From: Pseudomonadota bacterium
GTDB lineage: Bacteria; Myxococcota_A; UBA9042
DNA: 64,000 bases
Reading direction: 5' to 3'
Assembly: GCA_041163625.1 (NCBI GenBank)
Contig: JBEARB010000253.1
Location: 11,034 to 75,033 of the forward strand
The notes under the pieces were generated by a model. The model was not told the DNA's origin. It worked only from the letters and a program-made list of their open reading frames with translations, and searched no databases. The position numbers and the translations under genes were made by a program. Below are positions 18,530 through 64,000 of this stretch, in pieces (positions within the stretch are counted from its first letter, which is position 1; every line of letters starts with the position of its first letter).

Positions 18530-18546
18530 CAGCAACAGGAGTCGAG

Positions 18547-22902: not shown

Positions 22903-22994
22903 CCCCCTGGTCGCGAGAAGCGCGGTTCTGGCGAACCATCCCCCTCCACGAGCCGCGCCAAGAAATCGCTCTTGGCGACTCCTTGATCGCGTCT

Positions 22995-23306
22995 CTACGC
23001 GTCGCCGGCCGGTCGAGCCGCGCGAAGCCGCCGAAACCAGAGGTAGGCCAAGGGCCCGATGCTGCCGCCGAGGACGGTGAGGACGAGCCACGGCCACAGC
23101 GGCTCGCCGTGGCGCCGCGCGTCGCGTCCGATCCACGTGGTGACCAGTAACATGGCCACGCTGAGATCGGCGAAGAGTTGCACGGTTCCGCTGTCCTGTC
23201 CGATCAGGCGCCACAGCCCGACATAGCCGAACTCGTGGACCGCCAGCGCGCTGAGCGCGCCAAATGCCAGGGTCGCGAGCGTCAGCAACCAGGTCGGCAG
23301 GTGCAT
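22995..23306 (-). CDS. Small 3-TM membrane protein (DUF2834-like).
   Basis: 103 aa with three hydrophobic helices: MHLPTWLLTLATLAFGALSALAV… The frame looks coding. Confidence 0.45.
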   Translation of the reverse strand: MHLPTWLLTLATLAFGALSALAVHEFGYVGLWRLIGQDSGTVQLFADLSVAMLLVTTWIGRDARRHGEPLWPWLVLTVLGGSIGPLAYLWFRRLRAARPAGDA

Positions 23307-23331
23307 CGCGGCGCTCCGGGACGCCGAGGCG

Positions 23332-24975: not shown

Positions 24976-25316
24976 CGTGAAGCCTCCGGACGCGTCGACG
25001 CCAACATCGACGGAGTGCCGCATGGGACAAGGCTGCGAAGTGTCGCGCCGCTCTCTGGGAGGGTCAAGTCGCCCCGGCCGAGGGGGGACGCCGAGCGGGG
25101 CCGCGACCGCGCCGTGCCTCACTCGGACGGCCGCATCCGCGTGATCCGCCATTGGCAGCTGGGGGCGCACATGATAGTCTTCCCGCAACGACGGAGGATC
25201 GTGTGCGCCTCCCCCCAACTCCGGGCGCACCGCGGTCTTGCCCGAAGGGGGCACCGGATCTCGCGTCCAACCCATCAGAACGATGGGTGGTCGGATCCGT
25301 CGTGGGAGAACGAACG

Positions 25317-28300
25317 ATGGCAGTCCTCGAGCGCATTCGCACCCTGTTCGGCACCATGCCACGCGGCCTCGGAGCCCTGGCGCTGGTGACCGCGATCGGC
25401 CTGTCGGCCTGTGCAGGCGAGTCCGGGAGCGACGCTGCAAGCGACGGCACCTGTGAGCCCGGCACGAAGGATTGCCTCTGCGCGACGGGCGCGGCGTGCG
25501 GCCCGGGCTTGTCCTGCGTCTCGGGGTCGTGCAAGGCCGGCGAGCAGGGTGCCCTGGGCATGGCCTGCTTCGCCAACATGACCTGCAATCCCGACGAGGA
25601 AGGCCGCGCGATGCTCTGCGTGGGCGGCGTCTGCCAGAAGGCGAGCTGCACGCAGGGCAGCGAGGGTTGCGGCTGTCTCGCCGGCGCGACCTGCGCCGCG
25701 GGGCTGACCTGCGACACCAGCACCGGTGCGGCGCTCTGCCAGAAGGCGGCCTGCGCGGACAACGTCGGCACGCTCGGCTGCGCCTGCGACGCGGACTACG
25801 GCTGCGCGGCGGGCCCGGGCGGTGCGGCGCTGGCGTGTGACGGCAAGCTGTGCATCTCGGCGATCTGCGCGCCGGGCACCGAGAACTGCTTCTGCGGCGA
25901 GAAGGCCACCTGCGCCTCGGGCCTGAACTGCGACGCCGGCACCTTCCGCTGTGTGAAGCCGAGCGGCTGCACCCAGGGCGAGTCGGGCTGTGCCTGCAAG
26001 GGCGACGGCAGCTGCATCGGCGACAAGCTGGTCTGCAACAGCAACGTCTGCGTGGTCGAGAACTGCCCGGCCGGCGAGATCGGCTGCACCTGCAAGGGCG
26101 ACGGCAGCTGCGCCGTCGGCGGCGACGCCCTGCTCGTCTGTCAGTCGGGCAAGTGCCTGCCCAAGGCGGGCTGCGCCGAGGGCACCCCCGGCTGCGCCTG
26201 CACCGCCACCGGCGGCTGCCAGGGTGACGGCTTCATCTGCGACAGCGGCACCAACACCTGCAAGGCGGTCTCCTGTGCCGCCGGCGCGCTGAACTGCGGC
26301 TGCAAGGCCGGCGCCACCTGCGACGCGGGCCTGGTCTGCGCGAACGGTCAGATCTGCGTCGACAACAAGGGCTTCCCCGGCGGTGCCTGCCTCGACGGCG
26401 ATCTCTGCAACGCCGGTGCGAAGTGCGACGGCGGCAAGTGCGCGACCTGCGCGCTCGGCAGCGAGGGCTGCGCCTGCTTCACCGGCGGCGGCTGCTTCGC
26501 CCCGCTGACCTGCCACCTCGGCAGCTGCGTCGCGCCCGGCAACTCGAGCACGACCGTGCCCGCTTCGCTCGACCCGCCGAAGGACGCGCAGTGCTGGACG
26601 CCCTGCAACCAGGGTGTGACCAAGCCCGACGGCACCTTCGTCGCGTGCGGCGCCGACGGCCTACTCCCGGGCTGCGTCGACGACCTGACCTGCGTCAAGG
26701 GCAGCTGCGTGAAGAAGGGCGACACGCCCGGCAAGTGCGAGACCGACCTGGACTGCGCCGAGCACCAGACCTGCTACCTCGCTGACGGCCACTGCTACTC
26801 GAACTGCAACGTCGACATGGACTGCGGCGACGGCGCGAGTTGCTACCGCCACGTCTGCCGCAAGACCTGCGACACCAAGGCGGGCTGCGACAAGGGTCAG
26901 TTCTGCAAGACGATCGACGGAGAGAACGGCTTCTGCATGCCGCTCGCGCCGCCGACCAAGTGCGAGGGTCCGCAGTGCGGTCAGAAGGCCGTCCTCGGTA
27001 GCTTCTCGCTGCAGGAGGACCAACTGAGCCTCTCGGACGCCAACGCGACCGGCCAGATCGTGGTCGACGTCGACAGCGCCTCGGAGACCTCGCTCAAGGT
27101 CCGCAAGGTCCGTCACTCGATGGTCGGCCAGGGCGGCGAAGAGGTGACCTGCGTCGCCGGCAGCAACAACTGCCCCTGCCAGCCCGGTGACGGCAAGGTC
27201 GTGCTCGCCGGTGTCACCTACTACTGCGACACCGCCAAGACCCCGCCGCTGCACTGGCTGAAGATTGGCACCAGCGACAAGCCCCTCGAGAAGGTGCAGT
27301 CGATCGACGTGAAGGTCGGCGCCGGCAAGACCAGCTTCACCCTGCTGCTGAGCACCGAGGGCGCCTCGCCCGCGCCGGCGTGGCAGGGCGTGGTCGAGAT
27401 CAGCCACCCGAACTACGGCGTCGGCGAGGTCTTCCTCTCCTACGCCGTGCGCCCGGACGGCCGCTGGATCGGCACCGCCTACTTCTTCGCCACCTTCGAG
27501 GACGAGGGCTTGGACAAGTGGCTGCTCAACCCGCAGGACTTCAACCTCGTCAAGAACGCGTTCGTGCAGCAGTGGCAGGTCTTCCGCAACCAGCCGATGG
27601 CCAACTACGAGATGATCAACGCGATGATGACCAGCGTCATCGACGAGACCTGGCAGTGGGAGAAGGTCCGCAAGGATTGCAAGAGCTTCGGCGAGAACGC
27701 CGCGTGCATCCCCTACGCCCCGCAGCAGCCCGGCTCGATCGGCGCCACCAGCGGCCTGTACAAGGTCAGCTCGGACTCGCGCACCATCCGGATGCCGAGC
27801 GGCGTCACAGAGCTGCCGCTCTCGTTCAACCTGAAGTCGACCGCCGACCCGACCCTGCTCACCGGCCGCATCACCACGGCCGACAGCTTGCAATACGGCG
27901 GCAACCCGTCGATTGGCGGCATCAAGCTCAAGCAGGATCCCGCCAAGGCCTGCACCGGCGGGCTGTGCGTCATCGGCGTGAGCGACATGAGCATCGACAT
28001 GGCGATCGGTGGTCGCTACGTCTCGAACAGCTCGGACACCACCTGCCAGGACATGCCGGCCGGTGCGTACGGCCACGTCGCGCTGCCGTGGTTGGTGCCG
28101 GGCTTCTTGGTCGGCACCGAGACCGACAACAAGACCAACACCGTCTACCGCTACGAGTGCCGTTCGAAGAAGGTGCCCTTCGGCGACGATCCGGCGCAGA
28201 TGGTCGCGAACATGACCTCGGCGGCCAGCAACCCGATCGCCGACGGCAAGCCGCGCAGCCGCACGCTGACGCTGCTCGACGGCGCGCTCATCAACCAAAC

Positions 28301-44262: not shown

Positions 44263-44278
44263 GGATTGGAGGTAGACT

Positions 44279-44578
44279 GTGGATGACCTGGACGACGATC
44301 CACAGCTTCCAACGCGTCGGCCATGGTGGTCCTGGTCCATTTGGCGCTTCCTGCTCTATGCAGTCACGATCTTGCTCTCCCTGCCGAGCTCGTTGGCCGC
44401 CAACTATGCCGTCGAAGAAGTAGCCGTGGACTTTCAAGTTGGCTGGCTTCTGGATGCATTGGACATGGATCAGTGCCGTGTTCCTCCACCGGGCTGCACG
44501 GTTGACGCCCATCCGAACGATCTCTGCATTCGGCGAGCGTGCGAGCGGTGGTACGGTGCGGACGGCGAGAGCGAGTAG
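44279..44578 (+). CDS. Small (99 aa) low-GC ORF with a hydrophobic segment and a Cys-containing C-terminus, 17 nt downstream of the rSAM pair.
   Basis: GGAGG sits 6 nt before a GTG start. …WWSWSIWRFLLYAVTILLSLP…CRVPPPGCTVDAHPNDLCIRRACERWYGADGESE. GC is clearly below the surrounding sequence. Confidence 0.3.
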   Translation: MDDLDDDPQLPTRRPWWSWSIWRFLLYAVTILLSLPSSLAANYAVEEVAVDFQVGWLLDALDMDQCRVPPPGCTVDAHPNDLCIRRACERWYGADGESE

Positions 44579-44993
44579 CTGCGGCCCGGTGGAGACGCAG
44601 GTTTCAGGGACTCATGCCTCGTGCATTGCGACTGGATGAGGAACCACGAACCAACTCGAGGCGTTCGAGCGACCGACGACGTCGACGATGGCGGGCCACT
44701 CGAGACTGAAGTCTCGAGCTGAATTGAGCGCCCGGCCTTCGCCGGGCTTGCGGGTCAGACATCCCGGCAAGTCCTCTGGCAGCGGCACACTCTGTCCCCT
44801 CCCGCCGCCGTCCAGGCCGAGCCGAAGGCGAAGTGCCCAGGCGGACCGACGCCACCCGCCCATCCAACGCGACCCAAGCCCGGGGGGAGCCCGAGGGGGG
44901 AGCGCAAGCGGCCCCCCCTCGGCCACGGGGGAGGTGCAAGGAGGGGGCAGTCCCCTCCTTGATCCGCCGTCTGCCGAGCAGACTCCACCTCGA

Positions 44994-52016: not shown

Positions 52017-53566
52017 TGCGTTGGGCGCTCGTGCTGCTGCTCGTCTCCGGATCGGCGTGGGCGCAGCCCGCGGACGATTGGGAGCCGCCGCCGCTGGCGC
52101 CGCGTACGTCGGTGCCGACGCCGGGCGCGGCCACGCCGACCGCGACCGACGCGGCACCCGCCCTGCTCGGCGGCGGCGACCGCAGCCTGTTGCAGAAGAA
52201 GGTCGTCGGCTGGGTCGACAGCCGCACCACCGGCGGCTACGCGAGCGTCGCGCACCTGCTGCCCGCCGACGATACGCCGCACCTCTCGAACCTGACCGAG
52301 GCGAACCTGCTGCTGACGCTCGATTGGGGCGATGTCGCCCGCGTCGTCGGCGACCTCTCCTGGGTCTGGGGCCGCGGCGCCTATTTCTACGCCGACGACG
52401 GCAGCGCCGGCCGCCTGCGCATCGCCTCGCACGACGTGCCGGCGGCGCAGTCGGGCACGTTCGTCAGTGAGCTCTACGGGCTGTTCCGCTTCGGCGAGCA
52501 TTGGAACCTGACGCTCGGCAAGAAGCGCGTGGTCTGGGGGACGGGCCTGGCGTGGAACCCGACCGACCTGCTCAACCCGCCCAAAGACCCCACCGATCCG
52601 ACCCAACAGCGCACCGGCTCGTGGCTCGCGCGCGTCGAGGGCCAATACGAGCGCGTCTCGTTCAGCCTGGTCGGCGCGGCCAAGGCGACCGCGCAGCTTG
52701 GCGGCATGCCGAGCCGCTGGCTCTGGAACCCGGCCGACGACACACCCGAATACGTCGTCGGCGCGCGCGTCTACGCCCTGGTCGCCGACACCGACCTCTC
52801 GCTCTTCGGCTTTTTCGGCAACCGCTTCAACGACGTCTTCGAGGACAAGCCGCGCCTGGGCGCCGCCTTCTCGCGCGTGGTCGGCGACAGCTTCGAAGTG
52901 CACGGCGAGGCGTTGCTGCAGCGCGGCTCCTCGCGCCTGTACCTCGACCGCAGCTGCACCGCCGACCTCGCCGCCGCCGCGGGCTGCGTCGCCGCCGGCA
53001 AGGACGTCGCCGCCCACAGCCGGCTCGACGACGAACGGCTGCGCGCCAAGACCTTGGTCGGCTTGCGCTACCAATTCGGCGCGGCGGCGAGCGTCTCGGT
53101 CGAATACCTCTACAACCAAGAGGGCTACGACGCCGGCGAATTCTCGGCCTTCGCGGGCGCGATGGCGCTGCGAAAGTCGGCGGCGCAGGCGGGGCTGACG
53201 CTGCCGGCCGGGGCGCTGCCGGGGATGCCGGGGGCGACCAGCACCGACCAAGGCGGCACGCCGCAGAAGTTCGCCTTCGAGCCGCTGCGCCGGCACTACC
53301 TCTTCGTGACCTACCTGCACCCGCAGCTCGCCGACGACTTCACCATCACCACCGTGCTGCTGCTCGGCCTCGAAGACGGCTCGGGCCAGCTCGCGCCGCA
53401 GCTGACGTGGTCGGCGCGGCAATGGCTCAACCTCTCGGTCGGCGCGTTCGTGACGCTGCCCGGCCTACCCGGCCTCGGCGTGACGACGCGCTACGGCGAG
53501 GTCCGGGAATTCCAGCTTCAACCCAGCGTGTGGCGGGCGTTCTTCGCCGCGCGCGCGTTCTTCTAG
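52016..53566 (+). CDS. Secreted protein, probable outer-membrane beta-barrel.
   Basis: The GTG start overlaps the upstream stop. Signal peptide VRWALVLLLVSGSAWAQ. Alternating amphipathic beta-strand-like segments, with a C-terminal aromatic residue (…AARAFF). Confidence 0.55.
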   Translation: MRWALVLLLVSGSAWAQPADDWEPPPLAPRTSVPTPGAATPTATDAAPALLGGGDRSLLQKKVVGWVDSRTTGGYASVAHLLPADDTPHLSNLTEANLLLTLDWGDVARVVGDLSWVWGRGAYFYADDGSAGRLRIASHDVPAAQSGTFVSELYGLFRFGEHWNLTLGKKRVVWGTGLAWNPTDLLNPPKDPTDPTQQRTGSWLARVEGQYERVSFSLVGAAKATAQLGGMPSRWLWNPADDTPEYVVGARVYALVADTDLSLFGFFGNRFNDVFEDKPRLGAAFSRVVGDSFEVHGEALLQRGSSRLYLDRSCTADLAAAAGCVAAGKDVAAHSRLDDERLRAKTLVGLRYQFGAAASVSVEYLYNQEGYDAGEFSAFAGAMALRKSAAQAGLTLPAGALPGMPGATSTDQGGTPQKFAFEPLRRHYLFVTYLHPQLADDFTITTVLLLGLEDGSGQLAPQLTWSARQWLNLSVGAFVTLPGLPGLGVTTRYGEVREFQLQPSVWRAFFAARAFF

Positions 53567-53575
53567 GAGTCCGCC

Positions 53576-54292
53576 ATGGCCCTCGTCACCCTGCAAGGCA
53601 TCCAGAAGTCCTACGAGCTCGGCAAGACCACCGTCACCGCGCTGCGCGGCGTCGACCTCGAGGTGCAAGCCGGCGAGTTCACCGTGGTGATGGGCCCCTC
53701 GGGCTCGGGCAAGACCACGCTGCTGAACATCATCGGCTGCCTCGACCGGCCGACCGGCGGCAGCTACGTGCTCGACGGCGAGGCCATCGGCGACCGCGAC
53801 TTCAACGACCTGGCCGAGATCCGCAACCGCAAGATCGGCTTCATCTTCCAGAACTTCAACCTGATCCCGGTGCTCTCGGTGCGCGAGAACATCGAATTCC
53901 CGTGCGTGATCCGCGGCGAGGGCGGCGCCGAGCTGAAGGCGCGCGTCGAGGCGATCGCCCGCGACGTCGGGCTCACCGACTTCCTGCACCACAAGCCCGA
54001 CGAGCTCAGCGGCGGTCAGCGGCAGCGCGTCGCCATCGCCCGCGCCCTGGTCACCGGTCCGCAGCTCGTACTCGCGGACGAGCCGACCGCCAACCTCGAC
54101 AGCAAGACCAGCGACCAGATCATCGACCTGATGTTGGCGCTGAACCGCGACAAGGGCGTAACCTTCCTCTTTTCCACCCACGATCCGCGCGTGATGGAGC
54201 ACGCTCGCCGGGTGGTCTCGATTCACGACGGCGTCATCGTCGACGGGACCGCAGCGGCGGCCGCCGACGTCGCCAGGATGCACGCCCGATGA
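53576..54292 (+). CDS. ABC transporter ATP-binding protein (LolD/MacB-type).
   Basis: GPSGSGKTTLLN (Walker A), LSGGQRQRVAIARAL (ABC signature), LVLADEPT (Walker B). Confidence 0.9.
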   Translation: MALVTLQGIQKSYELGKTTVTALRGVDLEVQAGEFTVVMGPSGSGKTTLLNIIGCLDRPTGGSYVLDGEAIGDRDFNDLAEIRNRKIGFIFQNFNLIPVLSVRENIEFPCVIRGEGGAELKARVEAIARDVGLTDFLHHKPDELSGGQRQRVAIARALVTGPQLVLADEPTANLDSKTSDQIIDLMLALNRDKGVTFLFSTHDPRVMEHARRVVSIHDGVIVDGTAAAAADVARMHAR

Positions 54293-54696
54293 GCACCCCT
54301 GCGAACACCGAGGTCCCCGTCGCGCTCCGGCGCTGGTTCGTCGTCCACTTCTGGGCCGACGTACTCTTCGCCCTGCCGCTCTTCCTCGCGCCGCAGGCGA
54401 TGCTCGAGGCGTTCGGCTGGCAGCAGATCGATCCGATCACCGCCCGCCTGGTCGCCGCCGCGCTCTTCGGCATCGGCATCGAGTCCTGGCTCGGGCGCAA
54501 CGCCGACCGCTCGAGCTTCCTGACGATGCTGCAGCTGAAGGTGATCTGGTCGGCGACCGCGACGATCGGCATCGCCTGGTCGCTGCTCGACGGCGCCCAC
54601 GGACGGCCGCCCTTCGCCTGGGCGGTGCTCGCCATCTTCGCCGGCTTCCACGTGCTGTGGTTGAGCTGGCGCATCCGGTTGGGCCGGATGGGTTGA
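54289..54696 (+). CDS. Small 4-TM membrane protein.
   Basis: ATGA overlap with the ATPase gene. 135 aa, hydrophobic (…WFVVHFWADVLFALPLFLAPQ…). Confidence 0.45.
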   Translation: MSTPANTEVPVALRRWFVVHFWADVLFALPLFLAPQAMLEAFGWQQIDPITARLVAAALFGIGIESWLGRNADRSSFLTMLQLKVIWSATATIGIAWSLLDGAHGRPPFAWAVLAIFAGFHVLWLSWRIRLGRMG

Positions 54697-54757
54697 GCGC
54701 CGACGCCCGCGGTCGCATGATCGGTCCGGGGCCGCGACCACGCGGCGGGAGGGTCGG

Positions 54758-56995
54758 ATGAACGAGCGAATCGAGCGCCGCTTCGGGCGCGGGCTGGCCG
54801 TGCTCTTGGCGGCGACGTGCACGTTGGCCGCGGCGGGCTGCAGCGACGACGACGGCAAGGGCAGCGGCAACACGGCCGACACCGCCGGCGCCGACAGCGC
54901 GGGCGACGTGGCCGGCGACGCCGTCGGCGATGCCACCAGCGACGGCAGCGGCGACGGCGACGCGGTCAGCAACGACGCCGCCGATACCGTCGCGATCCCA
55001 CACGTCCTGGAGCTGCAGCCGACCGTCGCCAAGGCCGCGGTCGATCCCTTCGCCGGCGGCGGCACGACCTCGTGCGCGACCTTCCGCGACACCCGCTGCG
55101 AAGGCGGCAAGCAGCAGACCTGCGCCGTCTACGACACCGCCAAGGGCGCGTTTGCCGAGACGGTGCCGGCGCTGGTCGAGCGCGCCTACGACTACGACCG
55201 CTGGTTCGACCGCTTCAGCAGCCCCGACGGCACCGCCGCCGAGCGCGTCTTCCTCGCGCCGATGCCCGCCGAGGCGACCGAGGGCGTCTGGGGCGACCCC
55301 GCCGCGTTCGCGCGCTACGACGGCACCGGCGACGGCGCGATCTGGACCGGCGCGGCGCTGACCTCGGCGGCGATGCGCTACGCCACCACCGGCACCGCCG
55401 CCGACCGCGCCCGCATGGTCGAGATCACCGAGCACCTGCTGCGCCATTTCGACGTGACCGGCGTGCCCGGCTACCTCGCGCGCCATACCTTCCTGCTCGC
55501 GCCCGAGGGCTCGCCGCGCTACGACGCGCATATCGTCGAATACGGCGAGAAATCGGTCTCCGCGCGCGACGTGAAGGTGCGCGCGAGCGAGCTCGGTGTG
55601 CTGCCCGAGGTCTACGCCAAGGGGCTCCCGGACGGAAAGGGCGGCGTCATCGCGGCCGAGCCGATGTGGAACGGCAACCCCTCGATCGACCAATACACCG
55701 GCCCGATGATGGCGTTCCCCATCGTCTACGAGCTCGTCGACGACGCGACGCTGCGCAAGCGCATGGCCGACCACCTCGTCTGCTACCTGAACCGACTCAA
55801 ACGCGTCGAGATCATCCACCTGCAGCAGAACCCGCAGCTGCTCGAGTCGGTGACGGCGTATTTCGGCGGCGGCAACCTGCAGCTCGACCCGGGCGACCTC
55901 GACCCGGCCAAGCTCGACCGTGTCGTCGGCTACTACCTCGACGACCTGAACAGCGCCAACGTCGACACCTACGACCGCAGCTGCCCGAAGGCGCCGGCGA
56001 CCACGCCGACGCTGGTGCTCGACGCCGCCGACCCCGGCTTCCTCGGCGAGATGCTGCTCTTCGCCAACCGCGTCGCCGCCGGCAGCCAGAAGACGCCCAA
56101 CGCCGAGGGCATCGCGCACATGTACGTGCCCAACGTCCGCGGCGGCGACGCCGTGCACATGCTGCACCTCGCGGCGATGGCCTATCGCTTTACCGGCGAC
56201 GAGGTCTACCGCACCTTCTTCTTCGAGACGCTGATCGAGGAACTGCAGGCCATCCCGGTCGCGAATACGACGCAAGCCTTCCAGACGCCCGATTGGTGCA
56301 AGGCCTTCTACGGCGACCACATCACCTACACGACGATGTGGCAGTTCGCGACGATGCTGAAGCCCGGGCCGCTGCTCGACGCGATGATCGACGTGATGCA
56401 CACCGAGGAGTGGGACAAGACCCTCGAGCGCGCGCACAACGCGCAATTCGACGTGATGTACGCCTCGCTGATGCCCGACTCGGATCCACGCGACCGCGAC
56501 CTCGCCATCGCCGACGCCCAAGCCGTGCTCAAAGCCTTCGGCGGCAACGGCGGCGTGCTCTCCGGCCCGCGTCGGACCTACGGGATCGCGCCGCAGAAGG
56601 TGATCGACAACTTCCCCACCGGCACCACCCTCGCCTGCCCGAGCGAGGGCGAGCGCAAGAGCTGCGAGGAAGGCATCAAGGTCTTCGGCATCCAGCTCGC
56701 CGGTGAGTCGATCTCGCACGCCTGCGACGGTCGTCCCGGCGAGTGCAAGATGCAGGACGGCGCCTGCACGCAAGGCATGGCGAGCGAAGGCCTACCGCCG
56801 TCGCTGCGCGCCTACGCCGACTTCGCGTGGCAACGCAGCCCGTACCAGATCGGCGACGGCGGCGATGGCGGGCGCAAGCAATCGCCCGGCATGGACCTGA
56901 GCCAAGCGTTCTGGCTCGCCGCGCATTATGGCTACCTCGCCGAGGCGAAGGGGTTGGTGCTGGCTTGGAAGGATACGGGGACTTGCGACAAGTAG
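54758..56995 (+). CDS. Secreted lipoprotein (745 aa), possibly a glycan-active alpha/alpha-toroid-type enzyme; function unknown.
   Basis: MNERIERRFGRGLAVLLAATCTLAAAGCSDDDG has a lipobox and is followed by the D/G/S/A linker seen in other lipoproteins here. The remaining ~650 aa are a globular domain. Confidence 0.65.
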   Translation: MNERIERRFGRGLAVLLAATCTLAAAGCSDDDGKGSGNTADTAGADSAGDVAGDAVGDATSDGSGDGDAVSNDAADTVAIPHVLELQPTVAKAAVDPFAGGGTTSCATFRDTRCEGGKQQTCAVYDTAKGAFAETVPALVERAYDYDRWFDRFSSPDGTAAERVFLAPMPAEATEGVWGDPAAFARYDGTGDGAIWTGAALTSAAMRYATTGTAADRARMVEITEHLLRHFDVTGVPGYLARHTFLLAPEGSPRYDAHIVEYGEKSVSARDVKVRASELGVLPEVYAKGLPDGKGGVIAAEPMWNGNPSIDQYTGPMMAFPIVYELVDDATLRKRMADHLVCYLNRLKRVEIIHLQQNPQLLESVTAYFGGGNLQLDPGDLDPAKLDRVVGYYLDDLNSANVDTYDRSCPKAPATTPTLVLDAADPGFLGEMLLFANRVAAGSQKTPNAEGIAHMYVPNVRGGDAVHMLHLAAMAYRFTGDEVYRTFFFETLIEELQAIPVANTTQAFQTPDWCKAFYGDHITYTTMWQFATMLKPGPLLDAMIDVMHTEEWDKTLERAHNAQFDVMYASLMPDSDPRDRDLAIADAQAVLKAFGGNGGVLSGPRRTYGIAPQKVIDNFPTGTTLACPSEGERKSCEEGIKVFGIQLAGESISHACDGRPGECKMQDGACTQGMASEGLPPSLRAYADFAWQRSPYQIGDGGDGGRKQSPGMDLSQAFWLAAHYGYLAEAKGLVLAWKDTGTCDK

Positions 56996-57005
56996 GGCTG
57001 AGGCT
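56880..57005. repeat. Left copy of a ~126-bp direct repeat (the 3' end of the 54758..56995 lipoprotein gene).
   Basis: aatcgcccggcatggacctgagccaagcgttctggctcgccgcgca… reappears at 57914..58039 with about 6 mismatches. Confidence 0.85.
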
Positions 57006-57094
57006 GGCGCCGACGTGACGGCGCGGCGGGCGGTGCTGATCCCCCGTGGAGCTCGTGCTAGGCTGCACCGAGGCGTCGATCTCGGAGGTCGGTC

Positions 57095-57343
57095 GTGGAT
57101 GAAACGCGGGAGAACGGAGCGAAGCGGTCCCCGCAACCCGCGGTGGTGGACGGCATCTACTGCTTCGAGATCGAGCCCGGCGTCATCATCGATACGCGGC
57201 CCGGCGCGACACAGGACGAAGACGGGGTCGATATCTCGCTGATCGAGATGATGTTGCAGCTGACGCCGCGCGAGCGGCTCCGCACGGTCGCACAATGGAC
57301 CGCGCTGGCCGAGGCAGGAGGGGTAGCCCGTGGCGACGACTGA
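57095..57343 (+). CDS. Small (82 aa) protein; possible partner (antitoxin-like) of the downstream nucleotidyltransferase.
   Basis: GGAGG upstream. Non-repetitive, protein-like sequence. Its stop overlaps the GTG start of the next gene. Confidence 0.4.
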   Translation: MDETRENGAKRSPQPAVVDGIYCFEIEPGVIIDTRPGATQDEDGVDISLIEMMLQLTPRERLRTVAQWTALAEAGGVARGDD

Positions 57344-57815
57344 CCTCGACCGCTTGCTGACGGCGGTCATCGAGGGCGGCGTGGAGTTCGTGGTCGTCGG
57401 GGCTGCGGCGGCCGTGTTGCAGGGGGCGCCTCTCGGCACCCTCGACCTCGACATCGTTCATGCACGGACGCCAGAGAATGTGCGCCGCCTCAAGACGGTT
57501 CTCGACGAGCTCGGAGCCATCTACCGACATCAGCATGGTCGTCGCTTGGCCGCGCGAGAGGAGATTCTGCTCGGACCCGGGCACAACCTCTTTGCGACAC
57601 GTCTCGGTCCACTGGACGCCCTCGGCGCGCTGGACGGGGCGGATTTCGAGGTCCTGATTCCATTGTCGCGTTGGATCGACTACGGCGGCGCGCCGGTCCG
57701 TGTCCTCGGAATCGAGACCCTGATAGCGATGAAGCGCCGGGCGGGAAGACCGAAAGACTTGCTCGCGATCCCGATATTGGAGCGGATGCTCTCGATGGAG
57801 CTGCCCGACGAGTGA
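57330..57815 (+). CDS. Nucleotidyltransferase-fold protein (MNT/AbiEii-like, toxin-antitoxin-type).
   Basis: GTG start with a GGAGGGG RBS. VVVGAAAAVLQGAPLGTLDLDIV (G-x-n-DxD NTase motif) and C-terminal LIAMKRRAGRPKDLLAI. Confidence 0.55.
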   Translation: MATTDLDRLLTAVIEGGVEFVVVGAAAAVLQGAPLGTLDLDIVHARTPENVRRLKTVLDELGAIYRHQHGRRLAAREEILLGPGHNLFATRLGPLDALGALDGADFEVLIPLSRWIDYGGAPVRVLGIETLIAMKRRAGRPKDLLAIPILERMLSMELPDE

Positions 57816-57913
57816 CAGCGTCGGCACTGGAACTGGCGTGTCAGGACTTGACACTTGACATCTTTGCGGCGCCAAAGGCGTAAAGTATCCGGTCCTGATA
57901 GCGAATTCCAAAG

Positions 57914-58039
57914 AATCGCCCGGCATGGACCTGAGCCAAGCGTTCTGGCTCGCCGCGCACTACGGCTACCTCGCCGAGGCCAAGGGGTTGGTGCTGGCTT
58001 GGAAGGATGCGGGGACTTGCGAGAAGTAGGGCCGAGGCG
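57914..58039. repeat. Right copy of the direct repeat (a diverged duplicate of the lipoprotein gene's 3' end including the stop).
   Basis: It encodes …SPGMDLSQAFWLAAHYGYLAEAKGLVLAWKDAGTCEK*. The differences from the left copy are mostly synonymous or conservative (T->A, D->E). Confidence 0.85.
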
Positions 58040-58139
58040 GGCACGCTAGTAACGAATTCTTGACTTTTGCTGTGTGCTGGTAAAGGATTCGTATCTCGTC
58101 GGCGTCCGTGGGCACGCGACCTTGACCACCGAGTGCGCC

Positions 58140-59318
58140 ATGTCGAATCGAGAGACGGGACGGTACGAGCGCACATCGACTGGCGGTGAGCAGGTTCGCG
58201 CCTTCGTGCCCCACGCGTTGCCTCCTGCTGACCCCGCGATTGTCATCGGGAGCCGACTGGCGGAGCGGGTGCGTGCCGCGGAACAGGCTCTCGTGCGGCT
58301 CGAGTTGGCCGGTGAGATGGTTCCCTCACTCGACTGGTTGATTTACGCCTTCGTGCGCAAGGAGGCGGTGCTTTCCTCCCAGATCGAGGGGACGCAGGCG
58401 ACGCTCATGGACCTCCTCAACTACGAGGCGGAAAGGAGTCCGCCCCTGCCGAACGCGGACGTCGAGGAGGTCTGCAACTACCTCGACGCGCTGACCTTCG
58501 CCCGGGCGCAGCTCAGCGACCCATCGGGGCTGCCACTCTCGATGCGCCTGCTCAACGAGACCCATCGGCGCTTGCTCCAAGGCGTCCGCGGTGAGAACAA
58601 GCTGCCGGGGCAGGTACGCCGAAGCCAGAACTGGATCGGAGGCAGCCGCCCGGGCAACGCGGCCTATGTGCCCCCGCCGCCGAATGCGCTCGCCGACGTG
58701 CTCTCGGCGTTCGAGCGGTACATCCATGCCGACGACGAGCTCCCGCCGGTGGTCCGAGCGGGTCTGCTCCACGTGCAGTTCGAGACGATCCACCCCTACC
58801 TCGACGGAAACGGGCGCATCGGACGCTTGCTCGTGACGCTGCTGCTGGAACATTGGCGCCTGCTCACGCGCCCGCTGCTCTACCTGAGCCTGTTCTTCAA
58901 GCGCCATCGGCAGGAGTACTACCGGCGGCTCGATGCCGTGCGAGTCGACGGTGATTGGGAAGCCTGGCTGGATTTCTTCCTCGATGGCGTGGCGACGATC
59001 GCTGACGAAGCCGTCGCGACCTCACGCGACCTCTTCTCGCTGGTGACCGCCGACCGGCAGCGCGTCATCCACCACACAAGCGTGAACCTGCTCGCCGTGC
59101 AGCTCTTCGAGCGGCTACCGAGTCGGCCCATCGTGAGCACATCTTGGGTCGTCGAAGCGCTGTCGACCACCAAGCCCACCGCCGGCCGTGCCATCGAGGC
59201 GCTCGAAGCCGCCGGCGTCCTCGTCGAGACCACTGGCAAGAAGCGCGACCGCGCCTATGTGTACCAGGCGTACCTCGACCGACTGCGCGCCGGGACCGAG
59301 CTTGGAGATGACGGCTGA
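58140..59318 (+). CDS. Fic family protein (Fic domain plus C-terminal winged helix).
   Basis: HPYLDGNGRIGRLL matches the Fic motif HPFx[DE]GNGR. The ~392-aa length and layout are typical. Confidence 0.8.
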   Translation: MSNRETGRYERTSTGGEQVRAFVPHALPPADPAIVIGSRLAERVRAAEQALVRLELAGEMVPSLDWLIYAFVRKEAVLSSQIEGTQATLMDLLNYEAERSPPLPNADVEEVCNYLDALTFARAQLSDPSGLPLSMRLLNETHRRLLQGVRGENKLPGQVRRSQNWIGGSRPGNAAYVPPPPNALADVLSAFERYIHADDELPPVVRAGLLHVQFETIHPYLDGNGRIGRLLVTLLLEHWRLLTRPLLYLSLFFKRHRQEYYRRLDAVRVDGDWEAWLDFFLDGVATIADEAVATSRDLFSLVTADRQRVIHHTSVNLLAVQLFERLPSRPIVSTSWVVEALSTTKPTAGRAIEALEAAGVLVETTGKKRDRAYVYQAYLDRLRAGTELGDDG

Positions 59319-59561
59319 CCTGACGGCGGAGTCAAAGCACCGAGCCAAGGGCAAAGGTGTTAGGTGCCTGGTCCTGACACCGAATTACTGACACCGTACC
59401 TCAATTCCGCCGCTCGGGTGGATCAGCTTCTACCCGGATGCCGCCGATCACGCGTGGCTCCTTCCGTCAATGATCACGGCCGGTCTGGGATCTTGCGATC
59501 GCCGTGGAAAATTCTCCTTGACTTGGACAATACGGCGGCAGACAGTCCAACTATCGCAACC

Positions 59562-59597
59562 AGCGGCTCCGCAGCAACCAGCGGCTCCGCAGCAACC
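59562..59597. repeat. Perfect 18-bp tandem duplication immediately upstream of ATG 59608.
   Basis: agcggctccgcagcaacc x2, preceded by a partial caacc. Confidence 0.8.
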
Positions 59598-59607
59598 AGG
59601 GGTGCCG

Positions 59608-60402
59608 ATGGCCACGCAACCGAAGCCAATCTTTCTCGCAACCGACGTGGAGCTACAGACCCTACCCGACGGCGCTGCGGTCATCCACTGGGCGCCACGC
59701 GAGACGTGGTCGGCTGGCAACGGTGCCCGGTTCTACACCGTCTACTACCAAGTCCTTCAGAACAGCGACGCGACGAACAACACCGTGCGCGTGCGTCTAC
59801 AGGGTAGCGCAGACGGCAAGAGTTGGGTCAACATGGACGACCTGCCGCTGGAGTTCGACGACATCGACAACGCCACCAACCTTGAGGCCACGACCTACTG
59901 GCCGAGTGAGTTGCTGCGTGCCGCGCCTTTCCTCCGCTGGGGTCTGGAGATCGAGAACGGCGCGGGCAGCTTGGGCACTGCACGCGCAACAGTGGTCGTT
60001 GTGCCGTGGTGGACGGACATGGACATCCTCCGCACCGTGCTCGCGCAGAACCAGGCGCTGGAGACGGCCACCGGCACGACGTACGAACTCGCGAACTCCT
60101 CGCTGAACCTGCTCGGCTTCACCAGCGGTGCGCTGCACGTGCAGACGTCTGGGGTGACCGGGGGGTCGACGACGTTCTCACTCTTGGCGAGCATGGACGA
60201 TCCCGATGATCCCGCGGCGGTCTGGGTGCCGGTTCCCAGTTCGCCGACGCTGGTGCTGGACGCCACGACGACGGCCGGTGCATTGCTGTTCAGTACCCAA
60301 GCGGGCATGTCGTTTCGTGTGGCCTACGTCAACACCGTCACCCTTACGGGCACGCCGGTCGTGGATTGGGTTCGGGTGCTGGCGCGCCGCGTGGGCGGCT
60401 AG
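59608..60402 (+). CDS. Hypothetical beta-rich protein (265 aa); the alternative start at 59470 would add a PQQPAA repeat N-terminus.
   Basis: Track ORF 59470..60402(+). Reduced GC (~60%). No recognisable motif and no signal peptide. Confidence 0.5.
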   Translation: MATQPKPIFLATDVELQTLPDGAAVIHWAPRETWSAGNGARFYTVYYQVLQNSDATNNTVRVRLQGSADGKSWVNMDDLPLEFDDIDNATNLEATTYWPSELLRAAPFLRWGLEIENGAGSLGTARATVVVVPWWTDMDILRTVLAQNQALETATGTTYELANSSLNLLGFTSGALHVQTSGVTGGSTTFSLLASMDDPDDPAAVWVPVPSSPTLVLDATTTAGALLFSTQAGMSFRVAYVNTVTLTGTPVVDWVRVLARRVGG

Positions 60403-60603
60403 GCGGCCTGCCGATGTTCGGTCTACCGCTCGGCATGATGCGTAGTCCGCGCAGTCACAGCGCCGGCACGAGATGTAGAGCGCGTCGTCGGAGGTCCGCC
60501 CGGCCACTGAAGTGGCGGGCTATCTTTGCGCCGTTCGCCCTCGCGGACGGCAACACAGGGCTCAACGTCAACCGCACGCGCTGTCAGTTTGTGGGAGGTC
60601 CGC

Positions 60604-60933
60604 ATGACCACGGAACGTGAACTTCCATCCAGTACCGCCACGAGCGACGTTGGCGGAGAGCCGTGTGAGTTGGAATTGCGGATTCGAGCAGTATTGGGGG
60701 GCGTGAATCCAGGGCTCCATGAAATGGAGGCCCGCGATGCGTTGATGGCGATTCACGAACTCGCAGGCCTCTGCATTGCCGAGAGGCCCGACGAGGTCGG
60801 GCGGATCGCGCCGTGGTTGTCGGAGGTGGTACTCACCGATTTGCAATCCGACATCGAACAGGCGAGCGATTCCACAGTATTACTCGGATTGCAGATCGTC
60901 AAATCGACTCTGCAGGGACGGGAGACAGAATGA
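60604..60933 (+). CDS. Hypothetical small protein (109 aa).
   Basis: GGGAGG sits 6 nt upstream of ATG 60604. The stop overlaps the next start (ATGA). Confidence 0.5.
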   Translation: MTTERELPSSTATSDVGGEPCELELRIRAVLGGVNPGLHEMEARDALMAIHELAGLCIAERPDEVGRIAPWLSEVVLTDLQSDIEQASDSTVLLGLQIVKSTLQGRETE

Positions 60934-62318
60934 TCGAACTTCTTATCAAGGTCATTGCAGCACTACTCAATGGCGTGTCGCGGTACCGATCGTTCGTGTA
61001 CAAATCTGCCAATGGCGCGTCATGGGAAGTTCTGTTTCGCTTTGAGAACGATCCCAGCGACGAGCGATACGGCGGGGGGTTGGCGCTGCTTAGTGCGCGC
61101 TTCGCCCTCAACACCGACACTATGCAACTGTCGAATATTTCTCCCGTCTCATACGTTCAGTTCACCACATCTCGGACCACCTACTTCACCAGGAATGCAG
61201 CTGGTCCGGATTCGGTCTCCGTGGAAAGCCCCCCACTCCTTGATGGAATGGGTAAGCCGTATGGCGGAACCGCAGGCGGGGTGCGGTTGCTGCCGCGGCC
61301 TTGGCTTGTTTCAAACGGCGCAAACCCTAAAGCATTCGCGATGGGCGGCAAAGAGCAGGCCGCAATCGAAGCGTCAATGAAGTCCGACCCCACGACTCGG
61401 CCAGTAGCCAAGGATGTCGTCGCGATCCATGTACTGGTTCCCCAAGACTCGACATCAAACTTTCCGATCGGAACGGTTCAGTTCGATGTTCGTGCCCGCT
61501 TTCAGGCTGCAAACTACCAGTTCGTCTCCGGGTTTCGCTTCTTCGACAATGGCGTCATTGAGCCCTACGTCTCTGCAACCGGAGCGACACTCCCATCAGT
61601 CGATGGGCCCACACTCCCGGTCGATTCGCGGGCGAAGGTTCATCTTCACGACTTCTACCTGTGGTATCTGCTCGACTCCAGTTCAATGGTTGGACCGCAC
61701 ATACGCGCACAAACTATCCGGCTGGACCATGAAGGTGCTCTCCCCTACTTCGTGCACTCTGAGGTAGGCACGTTCAAGACACTAGGCGAGAACCCATGGC
61801 CAATCGTTGAAGATGAGACTATCACTGGCCATCTCGTGGGCCTTCGTCTGCTGAAGAACCTTGATCTCGACTTGCTTCTGAAAGAAGGAGAGGAACTACC
61901 CGGCACCTGGGCTTGGCTCGAACAGGAGAAATGGGGCGTGATCATCGACTGGCAGCACGACGACATGTCGGATGTAAAGGACTACTTGGCCGAATGGTCA
62001 ACCTACACCGATCAGGGGTGGCGTGCGCTACTTCGGGCTGTCAAGTTCGACGGAGACGCGGCCCGATTTATTGCCAAGGTGGCCAATACAACGCACGCAA
62101 TTCAGGTCTCGCCTGGCGATCAAACGGCAACCGGCGCAAAATCTCTTGCCTCGGGCATGGATGTTTTGGGCTGCTTGCGCCTATATCACCTACATCTTCC
62201 TTCCAGACCTGACGCGAACCTTACGCCGCTCCGCAGCGTTTGGTTCGCAATTCGCCCTCGTGTGTGGCCTAAGACGGCGTATTTCGACGCAGTGTACAAG
62301 GATGTGAACAAGCAATAG
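60930..62318 (+). CDS. Hypothetical protein (462 aa), translationally coupled to the previous gene; ~55% GC.
   Basis: Internal ATG 60930 of track ORF 60813..62318, with GGGAG upstream. MIELLIKVIAALLNGVSRYR…; I recognise no family. Confidence 0.55.
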   Translation: MIELLIKVIAALLNGVSRYRSFVYKSANGASWEVLFRFENDPSDERYGGGLALLSARFALNTDTMQLSNISPVSYVQFTTSRTTYFTRNAAGPDSVSVESPPLLDGMGKPYGGTAGGVRLLPRPWLVSNGANPKAFAMGGKEQAAIEASMKSDPTTRPVAKDVVAIHVLVPQDSTSNFPIGTVQFDVRARFQAANYQFVSGFRFFDNGVIEPYVSATGATLPSVDGPTLPVDSRAKVHLHDFYLWYLLDSSSMVGPHIRAQTIRLDHEGALPYFVHSEVGTFKTLGENPWPIVEDETITGHLVGLRLLKNLDLDLLLKEGEELPGTWAWLEQEKWGVIIDWQHDDMSDVKDYLAEWSTYTDQGWRALLRAVKFDGDAARFIAKVANTTHAIQVSPGDQTATGAKSLASGMDVLGCLRLYHLHLPSRPDANLTPLRSVWFAIRPRVWPKTAYFDAVYKDVNKQ

Positions 62319-62338
62319 CAGGGGCCATTGGGGGGCAC

Positions 62339-64000
62339 ATGGCTATCCACTATCGAGTTTCTCCACTTCGAAGCCTCGCAACTATCGCCCTAACTCAGAT
62401 TCTAATTGGGTGTGGCGACGGAGGAGCGGGCGAGAAGGCAACCGCAAACGTAGCTGTGAAATGTGAGTCGGGTAGTGCAAAACTGCTGCGTTCTCAAGCG
62501 ATCCCGACGGCATGTTCCGCCACAGATCGAAAGAATGCGGGAGCGTTGGGTCCTCTCGTTGAGAACGAAGGTCTATGGTACCAAGGGCAGCAATGGTTTC
62601 ATTACCGTCAAGGATGCCGATCCTTCGAGGCCCGCCCGTCGGAGGACACAAGCGAGCTGATTGTCGAAGAGTTCGAGTCCGGGGAACCAAGGATCGTGCG
62701 AAGAGAAGTTGGTCGACTCCCGTTGCAGCGCCGCTCGGTGAAGTTTGCGCCCGGGGCTGGCGCTTCAAGCTACTTCGGCATGGGCTCGTATTCCCTGCCG
62801 GTGGTGATTCGCCTCTCTGCGAACACCGTCCTCCTGCCTCTCTGCCGTGTGTTCGGTTCACATGACGCGCCGAGCAACCGTTTCGACTTCGTCGGCCAAC
62901 AGTTCGTGGTGATTGATCATGGATCGGACCCTCCAGCGCTTCGGGAAGTTAGCGGCAAGGGTCTGGAGTTCGATGGAATTTGTGTGAGCGCCGTCGGCGT
63001 ACGAGACGGAGTCGCATCCGCGCTGTTGGCGATTCAGGTTCACCCGGATACTCCGAGCGCCGAGGCTGCTCCCCCCAGCGGAGGCACGCTGCACGGACTC
63101 CATGTCGATATCGTTCGTGTTGAACGAGCGGGAACGGAATTCGTCGCCAAGCGCTTGGGCGTGTTGCCGCCCGCGTGGAAGGACGTGCGAGCGATTTCGC
63201 GCCGGGGCCAGGAAGCGCTTCTGGTAGGCTACCGTAGCAAGAGTGACGACACGACTGTTGTTGGGCCGGAAGCCAAGTCCATCTCGCTCACATTGAAGTT
63301 CGCTGCGCTCCGATCATCAGGTGACTTGGTTGAGATTGGGGCTGGGTCTGAGGGGACCTGGCAAGTGAATGCATTGATGCGCTGCACAGACCCAGCATGG
63401 TTCTGCGGCTACGAAATAGGTCCAACTTTCGCGGGGTCGGCAGTTGGCAAGGGGAGCCTCAAACTGAACCTCCGCAACGAGCTTCGTGTTCATGCAAGGA
63501 GTGTCCAGGCAGCCTCTGCCGAAGTTGGGCAGGTTAACGAAGGGCATGTTGGCTTCCTGACAAGGGCAGAACAGCAGTTTCCCCAAGGATTTCACGCTTG
63601 GGATGCAGTGACCCCACCTGTGGCGACGGCCGACCCCGGGAAACTTGACGCATGGCTCGAACCCGGTTGCACTAGGACAAATTCCTACTTTTTCCAGCCA
63701 GTCACCTTGCCCTCGGGAGAGCTCCTCCTCTTCGCTGTTGTGCGGGCCAAGCCCGAATCATGCTCCGGCGTGTTTGCCATCCGGATGACTCACCACGGTT
63801 CGATTCGGTGGCTAAAGCGCTTGCCTCTCTCAGCGAGCACGGCCTGGGGCGAAATCCGCTACGTCCCGGAGGTGGACGCATCCGGCTTCGTATGGTGGGG
63901 GCCGACCTCCTTTCTTGCGCCGTTCGCGGTCACCGACCCGGTCGACATTTCCGCATGTGGCGGTCTCGGCTGGGACGGCTGCAGCGACGGCAACGCCTGC
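62339..64000 (+). CDS. Lipoprotein, partial (3' end beyond the window).
   Basis: My own translation from ATG 62339 gives MAIHYRVSPLRSLATIALTQILIGCGDGG (lipobox). The frame is open to the window end and finishes …ACGGLGWDGCSDGNAC. It is not in the ORF track because no stop falls inside the window. Confidence 0.5.
   Translation, partial: MAIHYRVSPLRSLATIALTQILIGCGDGGAGEKATANVAVKCESGSAKLLRSQAIPTACSATDRKNAGALGPLVENEGLWYQGQQWFHYRQGCRSFEARPSEDTSELIVEEFESGEPRIVRREVGRLPLQRRSVKFAPGAGASSYFGMGSYSLPVVIRLSANTVLLPLCRVFGSHDAPSNRFDFVGQQFVVIDHGSDPPALREVSGKGLEFDGICVSAVGVRDGVASALLAIQVHPDTPSAEAAPPSGGTLHGLHVDIVRVERAGTEFVAKRLGVLPPAWKDVRAISRRGQEALLVGYRSKSDDTTVVGPEAKSISLTLKFAALRSSGDLVEIGAGSEGTWQVNALMRCTDPAWFCGYEIGPTFAGSAVGKGSLKLNLRNELRVHARSVQAASAEVGQVNEGHVGFLTRAEQQFPQGFHAWDAVTPPVATADPGKLDAWLEPGCTRTNSYFFQPVTLPSGELLLFAVVRAKPESCSGVFAIRMTHHGSIRWLKRLPLSASTAWGEIRYVPEVDASGFVWWGPTSFLAPFAVTDPVDISACGGLGWDGCSDGNAC

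Follow-up and report, generated by a model that had tools for sequence, protein, structure and literature searches.

A 64,000-nt stretch of contig JBEARB010000253.1 (assembly GCA_041163625.1, a Pseudomonadota bacterium placed by GTDB in Myxococcota_A, UBA9042; hereafter the window) contains the 3' end of a predicted lipoprotein gene in repeated form. Two copies of this gene end lie inside the window, and a third is seen just beyond its right end in two independent contigs (L086 and L087). From left to right, the locus is composed of the gene body, core and tail 1, a two-gene nucleotidyltransferase cassette, a non-genic arm, core and tail 2, a Fic gene with four to five further open reading frames (ORFs) of unknown function, a second arm (arm'), core and tail 3, and then high-GC chromosome. 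We consider it probable, if only just, that the two repeats of the window are the attL-like and the internal att-like copies of a three-copy array, which arose by serial att-type integration and tandem accretion. This type of event is known from other bacteria; what is new here is the target gene, the lineage and the unusually compact, cassette-like nature of the units. The target gene and the repeated elements are the following:

54758-56995, plus strand: target gene for a 745-aa predicted lipoprotein (from the ORF listing); its last 38 codons are the repeated tail.
56880-57008, plus strand: copy 1, attL-like; 46-nt core at 56880-56925, tail 1 at 56926-56995 including the stop codon, and 13 nt downstream.
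57816-57913, plus strand: low-GC arm or "spacer" that closes module 1 on the right, with a GC content of 0.54; its part 57832-57913 recurs before copy 3.
57914-58042, plus strand: copy 2, internal att-like; core, tail 2 and 13 nt, intact and displaced, reading ...KDAGTCEK*.
Window-equivalent 64126-64207: arm', before copy 3, in L086 and L087.
Window-equivalent 64208-64315 (L086 3974-4081), same orientation: copy 3, with a decayed tail.

Inside the window, the copy number of the repeat is two. A repeat finder delimits a family of 134 nt at 93% identity (56875-57008 and 57909-58042, with a spacing of 1034 nt), and the ungapped direct repeat covers 129 nt (56880-57008 versus 57914-58042) with 7 mismatches, corresponding to 94.6% identity and a blastn E value of 3.5e-54. 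An earlier note on this DNA had estimated about 126 bp and some 6 differences, mostly synonymous or conservative, and was essentially right. Copy 1 is made up of the final 113 coding nt of the lipoprotein gene, its TAG stop codon and 13 nt 3' of the stop. From copy 1 to copy 2, three mismatches are synonymous (56926 T>C, 56929 T>C and 56947 G>C), two lead to conservative amino acid changes (56975 A>G, Thr>Ala, and 56989 C>G, Asp>Glu) and the remaining two, at 56999 and 57005, lie behind the stop codon.

L086 and L087 are 99.97-100% identical to the last 3.8-4.1 kb of the window and extend beyond position 64000. Here, L086 3892-4081 (equivalent to 64126-64315) is 91% identical to window 57832-58020 and comprises arm' followed by the third tail copy, which lies some 200 nt beyond the end of the window. 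This copy has suffered a Tyr>Asp and a Leu>Val change as well as a frameshift, and has lost both the invariant Cys residue and the stop codon. Decay of the tails is thus graded: function is kept in tail 1, tail 2 has remained intact despite three synonymous and two conservative changes, and tail 3 is degraded. The "genes" of 34 aa and 79 aa that are called on copies 2 and 3 represent displaced pieces of a gene and not genes in their own right. The 490 nt that follow copy 3 have a GC content of 0.74 and hold a convergent gene, and the DNA beyond copy 3 looks like chromosome again.

Copies 2 and 3 are each preceded by an arm of ~82 nt, which is of non-genic origin. Arm and arm' differ at 9 of 82 ungapped positions (~90% identity; 91% over 80 nt against L086 3892-3971, E = 1e-26). 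The arm motif that precedes the core reads GGACTTGACACTTGACATC...GGTCCTGATARCGAATTCC, and the arm includes the tandem elements TTGACAC/TTGACAT and the inverted pair TGTCAGGAC...GTCCTGATA. Simple scans detected neither a sigma-70 promoter nor an intrinsic terminator in the arm, and it has no Rfam match. Its hairpin is not significant (DNA fold of -14.3 kcal/mol, z = -0.85 against shuffles); a role as attC site or terminator was rejected because the arm folds no better than shuffled sequence.

The adjoining 46 nt at the start of the repeat, which we call the core, are free of differences across all three copies, whereas the flanks have diverged by ~9% (9/82 between arm and arm', 7/83 between tail 1 and tail 2). 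By chance, the 7 differences between copies 1 and 2 would all spare the first 46 nt with a probability of 0.046; those of copy 3 are located outside the core too. On the left, the edge of homology is sharp, in that the gene body and both arms switch to the repeat at the same position (CAAGCAATCG...). An attP of ~210 nt fits these observations, because a non-genic arm is shared, the left edge is sharp and common, and an invariant core is bordered by diverged flanks. Together, the arm, the 46-nt identity and the divergence of the flanks point to att-type serial integration over generic homologous cassette exchange. The single cassette exchange between two repeats that the earlier note had proposed retains its notion that the insert brought along a flank; it is at odds with the three copies, the presence of at least two stacked modules and the shared non-genic arm.

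Short motifs recur near the junctions (57838-57910, 58047-58059 and 59369-59392). They include TGTCAGGAC and GTCCTGA(T/C)A in inverted and direct arrangement, the tandem TTGACAC TTGACAT, and TA(G/A)CGAATTC, which flanks copy 2 on either side. The GAATTC sites at 57903 and 58054, already listed in the earlier note, are both part of the latter motif. Conceivably, these junction motifs could be protein-binding sites.

Where did the gene end come from? The lipoprotein and its 157 homologues, most of which come from metagenome-assembled genomes (MAGs) of Myxococcota, form a conserved family; in Pfam and NCBIfam, the protein has no match. Tail 1 is the working 3' end of its gene and keeps all of the residues G732, L735, A736, W737 and C743, which are invariant in the family. 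Its GC content at third codon positions (GC3) of 0.816 lies below the whole range of the gene body, in which 38-codon windows average 0.943 and do not drop under 0.842, and it uses GCT, ACT and TTG codons, which are absent or rare in the body; GCT and ACT codons occur in all tail copies and never in the gene body. Because its GC3 falls below all body windows and its codons are atypical of the body, tail 1 fits supply by incoming DNA, in line with the earlier suggestion that the insert carried its own homologous flank. The arms and the cargo are compositionally foreign as well. GC content is ~0.71 upstream, 0.54-0.67 within a low-GC island of ~7.3 kb (units of 1.0 and ~6.3 kb) and 0.74 after copy 3; GC3 amounts to ~0.9 in host genes, ~0.80 in the cassette ORFs, 0.83 in Fic and 0.60-0.78 in the ORFs downstream.

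An assembly artefact, that is, a collapsed or chimeric join at repeated sequence, is excluded for practical purposes, because independent assemblies reproduce the junctions. Short-read metagenome contigs do break in or near the repeats, with L004 ending at 57083, L083 starting at 57089 and Logan unitigs stopping within the 46-nt core. Nevertheless, each junction (copy 1/cassette, cassette/copy 2, copy 2/Fic and last ORF/arm'/copy 3) is found with its copy-specific single-nucleotide polymorphisms (SNPs) in at least one independent assembly, so that we give next to no credence to a faulty join. The supporting contigs stem from three different samples and assemblers, and four independent metagenome assemblies contain the junctions. 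L004 (JGI 3300043420) spans 52541-57083 at 99.9% identity, L005 (Logan SRR30352471) spans 56959-57943, L083 (JGI) spans 57089-59935 and L006 (Logan SRR35180390) spans 57993-59585; both flanks of copy 2 are seen in L083 and L006. In addition, L001 (ENA ERZ27275788), a strain with 98% identity to the window, has the same left junction, with copy 1 leading into the upstream region of the cassette. Look-ups of the displaced-tail 34-aa ORF, the 82-aa ORF, the nucleotidyltransferase and Fic returned only contigs collinear with the window.

Some variation among these relatives was apparent. The JGI assembly of the same population breaks at 57083-57103, and two SNPs in L083 (57100 and 57103) are a hint that strains differ immediately upstream of the 82-aa ORF. 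L001 contains an extra 57 bp (L001 3312-3368) after window position 57030, between tail 1 and the promoter region of the cassette; the insertion holds a GC-rich hairpin (GCCCGGGAAATCGTTCCCGGGC) and is bordered by an imperfect direct duplication of ~24 nt. Finally, an 18-bp in-frame tandem repeat (PAAPQQ) at window ~59520-59560, upstream of or N-terminal in the region of the 59608-60402 ORF, is present in different copy numbers in the window and in L083, which is otherwise identical.

How might serial integration have built the array? We envision that each module is composed of a replacement for the end of the gene (its final ~28 codons and stop codon plus 13 nt), tightly packed cargo and the ~82-nt arm. 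In circular form, such a module would present an attP of ~210 nt, consisting of arm, 46-nt core and tail and common to both modules. Integration into the 3' end of the gene would swap in the tail of the element, such that the gene stays intact, and the earlier tail would be pushed downstream to become a pseudogene fragment. Two integration events, or the integration of a pre-stacked pair, would yield the observed order. A corollary, which holds irrespective of the site taken by the second insertion, is that each tail would be linked to the cargo that follows it: tail 1 would have arrived with the nucleotidyltransferase pair and tail 2 with Fic. Since neither module encodes a recombinase, both would be non-autonomous units resembling cis-mobilizable elements (CIMEs), and an integrase would need to be supplied in trans. 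Recombination between the repeats could delete or reshuffle modules, while an addictive MenAT-like operon would favour their retention.

Several observations weigh against serial att-type integration. No integrase, resolvase or transposase was found with Pfam, NCBIfam, PADLOC and PHROGs in the island ORFs, in ~57 kb upstream or in 490 nt downstream; Pfam searches of essentially all large ORFs of the window returned housekeeping genes and large proteins of unknown function. Neither an empty site, which the earlier note had pictured as the lipoprotein gene followed directly by Fic, nor alternative cassette content nor a circular junction occurs in any of the available sequences; the genome of the window is itself outside the genome collection. 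An autonomous relative was not found either, and exact-pattern scans with the repeat and the arm gave 0 matches in collections of metagenome and viral contigs that evidently lack this organism. When the genome collection was scanned with a profile of the lipoprotein, a second tail copy was present in 0 of 76 homologous loci of other species, and because of this the site is not demonstrated to be a recurrent insertion hotspot. An inverted repeat in the core, GAGCCA-N7-TGGCTC, is not significant alone (p = 0.057); it was dismissed as proof of a tyrosine-recombinase site and is kept as a lead. A unit of 1 kb is unusually small for a decayed island. Moreover, the tail alleles are mosaic: copy 3 combines T,T of copy 1 with C,G of copy 2, and L001 carries one copy-2 state, its expressed tail having Ala as in copies 2 and 3. 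Site-specific events account for such mosaics no better than homologous recombination or gene conversion does.

They are also among the arguments for RecA-dependent homologous recombination, whereby a circular or linear DNA bearing a homologous gene tail would have entered by a Campbell-type single crossover, or entire modules would have been exchanged from strain to strain by a double crossover in the repeats; this corresponds to the cassette exchange of the earlier note and would involve no dedicated site-specific recombinase. Such a process would be consistent with the absence of a recombinase gene in or near the island, and repeats of 129-190 nt at 91-95% identity with an identical run of 46 nt are adequate substrates for it. 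However, it leaves unexplained the placement of the first tail copy on foreign DNA, the presence of the same non-genic 82-nt arm at the end of two compositionally different modules and the termination of gene homology at the same nucleotide in both arms, and it merely shifts the origin of the structure to another strain. We regard this scenario as a serious rival, though a rather unlikely one. A transposon with target-site duplication was rejected, as it was in the earlier note, because there is no transposase, the cassette ends lack terminal inverted repeats and the repeat is long (129 nt) and imperfect. Likewise, a tRNA or tmRNA gene as integration target was rejected, since none is located within the window.

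Alternatively, the tails might descend from a local tandem duplication, for instance through slippage or unequal crossover, with both copies being ancestral; they would then have diverged, and cargo would have entered between them at a later time. The repeats are indeed direct, in the same orientation and close together, and the left junction in the 98%-identical strain L001 implies that the structure is not brand new. Yet the differences are unevenly distributed (0/46 in the core versus ~9% in the flanks), the functional copy rather than the displaced ones has the least host-like codons, cargo and arms are foreign in composition, and a non-genic arm is repeated along with the tail. The nearest species (85% amino acid identity), which shows no synteny on either side, has a single tail, as do the 75 other loci. 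A local origin thus seems quite improbable to us. Even less credible is the idea that gene conversion draws on the downstream tails as silent donor cassettes for programmed variation of the C terminus, as it does for pilS or vls. Partial, silent copies do lie behind an expressed one and are oriented like it, and the Ala state of copies 2 and 3 in the expressed tail of L001 would be in keeping with such a transfer. But tails 1 and 2 differ by only two amino acids, both conservatively exchanged, copy 3 is frameshifted, unrelated foreign cargo separates the copies and no recombination-stimulating features were found.

Serial att-type integration has well-described counterparts. In Escherichia coli, prophage e14 and phage 21 insert into the 3' end of icd and provide a replacement end that differs mainly by synonymous and conservative changes (PMC13626634). 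The displaced original end persists as a pseudogene fragment (icdC) at the far end of the element, and recombination between the copies generates chimeric alleles (PMC13626634). The locus described here is similar in that direct repeats of the 3' end of the target gene flank the element and that the element-borne end maintains the frame and the conserved residues. It is different in that e14 and phage 21 are prophage-type elements of 15-40 kb with their own integrase, whereas the island comprises units of 1.0 and ~6.3 kb with no integrase found and three stacked tails.

CIMEs and tandem accretion have been described for the integrative and conjugative element (ICE) family ICESt1/ICESt3 at the 3' end of fda in Streptococcus thermophilus (PMC5704250). 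The resemblance lies in integrase-less tandem units at the 3' end of a gene, att-type repeats and an internal att site between modules: the present array has three att-type repeats in the same orientation at one target, and integration or transfer genes were not found in the modules. In the ICESt1/ICESt3 family, the repeats measure ~27 nt. Those at the lipoprotein gene are longer, at 129-190 nt, no related autonomous ICE or integrative and mobilizable element was found for the lipoprotein site, and the cargo is packed right up to the arms, more in the way of cassettes than of decayed ICE debris. In Dehalococcoides, tandem islands at ssrA are bounded by 20-bp direct repeats of the 3' end of the tmRNA gene; many of them possess a serine-integrase module, 15 are devoid of integration modules, and a conserved non-target motif is found directly upstream of each repeat (PMC3146451). 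Tandem islands, repeats of the target 3' end, a non-target motif before the repeat and the lack of an integration module in many islands are common to both cases, whereas the target here is protein-coding, a surrogate coding tail is part of the 129-nt repeat and integration modules were not seen.

Integrons and dif-like sites offer further points of comparison. As in integrons, compact recombinase-less cassettes are stacked in a promoter-proximal manner, and each ends in a similar sequence of recombination-site type, which begins with the stop codon of its last ORF. In contrast to integrons, no intI-type integrase adjoins the array (in ~57 kb upstream and the island), no attC-like hairpin is present (z = -0.85) and the repeated unit includes the 3' end of a host gene, which integrons are not known to duplicate. 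With respect to integrative mobile elements exploiting Xer (IMEX), whose attachment site mimics the chromosomal 28-bp dif site, GAGCCA-N7-TGGCTC of the core (p = 0.057) could at most be a candidate, located inside a gene. Proteobacterial dif sites have an AT-rich centre, and the core is without one. It is also conceivable, albeit rather unlikely in our estimate, that arm, core and tail constitute the site of an undescribed cassette-stacking system with a trans-acting recombinase at the lipoprotein 3' end in uncultured Myxococcota. One-operon cassettes without recombinase would then be captured serially, the stop codon of their last ORF lying inside the arm and each bringing a replacement gene end. 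Such a system would be functionally integron-like for defence and toxin-antitoxin genes and would follow a different site logic.

The modules that would have been stacked by serial integration carry the following cargo:

57017-57094, plus strand: upstream region of the two-gene module, promoter/operator-like, conserved in L084 and L085 (two other Myxococcota MAGs).
57095-57343, plus strand: 82-aa ORF, putative antitoxin partner, overlapping the next ORF by 14 nt.
57330-57815, plus strand: 161-aa nucleotidyltransferase-fold protein, putative MenT-like toxin (AlphaFold2 and Foldseek).
58140-59318, plus strand: SoFic-like Fic/DOC protein with Fic_N, Fic and helix-turn-helix domains, first gene of module 2.
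59343-59390, plus strand: degenerate partial arm without tail copy, CAAAGGTGTTAGGTGCCTGGTCCTGACACCGAATTAC, 77% identical over 35 nt to 57873-57907, with inverted repeat I1.
59608-64000, plus strand: rest of the module 2 cargo, four to five co-oriented ORFs, namely 59608-60402 (264 aa), 60526-60933 (~109-135 aa), 60930-62318 (462 aa) and, from 62339 to window-equivalent 64126, an ORF for a 595-aa predicted lipoprotein with weak matches to Cys-rich repeats.

In the two-gene cassette, the 161-aa protein matches no curated family above threshold: its hit to Pfam DUF2204 (PF09970; E = 0.0079, 16.3 bits) is below the cutoff of 20.3, and NCBIfam and PADLOC gave no match. It has hundreds of homologues, many of them named "predicted nucleotidyltransferase". 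An AlphaFold2 model (predicted local distance difference test score, pLDDT, of 93.3) retrieved TM1012 (E = 8e-7) and MenT1 of MenAT1 (E = 2.6e-4) from the PDB by Foldseek, followed by ANT(2'')-Ia and LnuA. The residues G24, G32, D39, D41 and D96 are invariant in 32 homologues and form the signature G..G...DxD...D, so that the predicted Pol-beta-type fold is accompanied by a G[GS]-x(9-13)-D-x-[DE] motif and by a third carboxylate. It resembles MenAT1 (Rv0078B/Rv0078A) and TM1012/DUF2204 in the translational coupling of a small upstream ORF to a nucleotidyltransferase of ~160-190 aa, in fold (Foldseek TMq of 0.6-0.66 to MenT1 and TM1012) and in the catalytic signature; it differs in that sequence identity is 16-21%, that the DUF2204 match is sub-threshold and that homology of the 82-aa partner to MenA1 could not be detected. 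This partner has no Pfam or PDB sequence match.

In relatives at 90%, 87% and 57% identity (L084, L085 and L088), the nucleotidyltransferase is likewise directly preceded by a small ORF, of 82-91 aa. The 14-nt overlap of the ORFs is shared by the window, L084 and L088; in L085, a short gap separates the nucleotidyltransferase from the 82-aa ORF before it. Nucleotide identity of the module is 82% to L084 and 79% to L085. This homology is limited to window 57017-57800 and begins at about 57017-57033, ~9 nt past the end of copy 1, and the context is unrelated, the module following a fatty-acid desaturase gene in L084 and L085. Because homology to these loci of unrelated context is limited to 57017-57800, the two-gene module appears to be a self-contained mobile unit, and its operon fills nearly the whole space from tail 1 to the arm. 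A duplication of the tail at the desaturase gene was considered and rejected; L085 has an extra insertion of ~1 kb and no duplicated tail. The earlier designation of the cargo as a toxin-antitoxin-like pair with a nucleotidyltransferase is thus supported for the conserved two-gene architecture and, based on the predicted structure, for the fold, and we infer that the pair may have toxin-antitoxin activity.

Module 2 starts with a Fic protein that matches Pfam Fic_N (7e-23) and Fic (7e-18) and the PADLOC model SoFic (5e-112), an anti-phage defence model. In searches of plasmid and phage databases, its gene was the only one to match plasmids, with distant DNA similarity (65-67%) to Fic genes of plasmids from Alphaproteobacteria, and no phages were matched. 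The ORFs after Fic belong to no family in Pfam, NCBIfam, PADLOC or PHROGs; those at 59608-64000 are a foreign operon beside a defence gene. The degenerate half-arm after Fic sits at a step in GC content, from 0.667 in SoFic to 0.60 in the next genes, and may represent a relic boundary between older modules. This coincidence suggests that module 2 is itself composite.

Two other regions of the window stood out. A low-GC intergenic patch at 44270-44760, between a radical-SAM gene and a pseudouridine synthase gene, includes a hairpin- or terminator-like segment (44698-44753) that is 89% identical to intergenic L084 1016-1071, in an unrelated MAG, and has no Rfam match. At 18517-35550, Pfam matches are all but absent from three huge ORFs (about 1461, 2260 and 1282 aa), DUF4215 being the only one; an adjoining ORF contains Dicty_CTDC Cys-rich repeats, and GC content at 27-32 kb is 0.63-0.66, below that of the surroundings.

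If the array indeed arose by serial att-type integration, it would be a clean natural example, in uncultured Myxococcota and hence in a phylum that has received little study, of small defence and toxin-antitoxin modules accumulating at one site without disruption of the target gene. Because the surrogate 3' end of each incomer would displace the old one, the locus would keep a readable record of successive insertions. The candidate attP of ~210 nt, with its arm, 46-nt core and tail, and the candidate attB may serve as handles in the search for the recombinase and for further cassettes in Myxococcota metagenomes.

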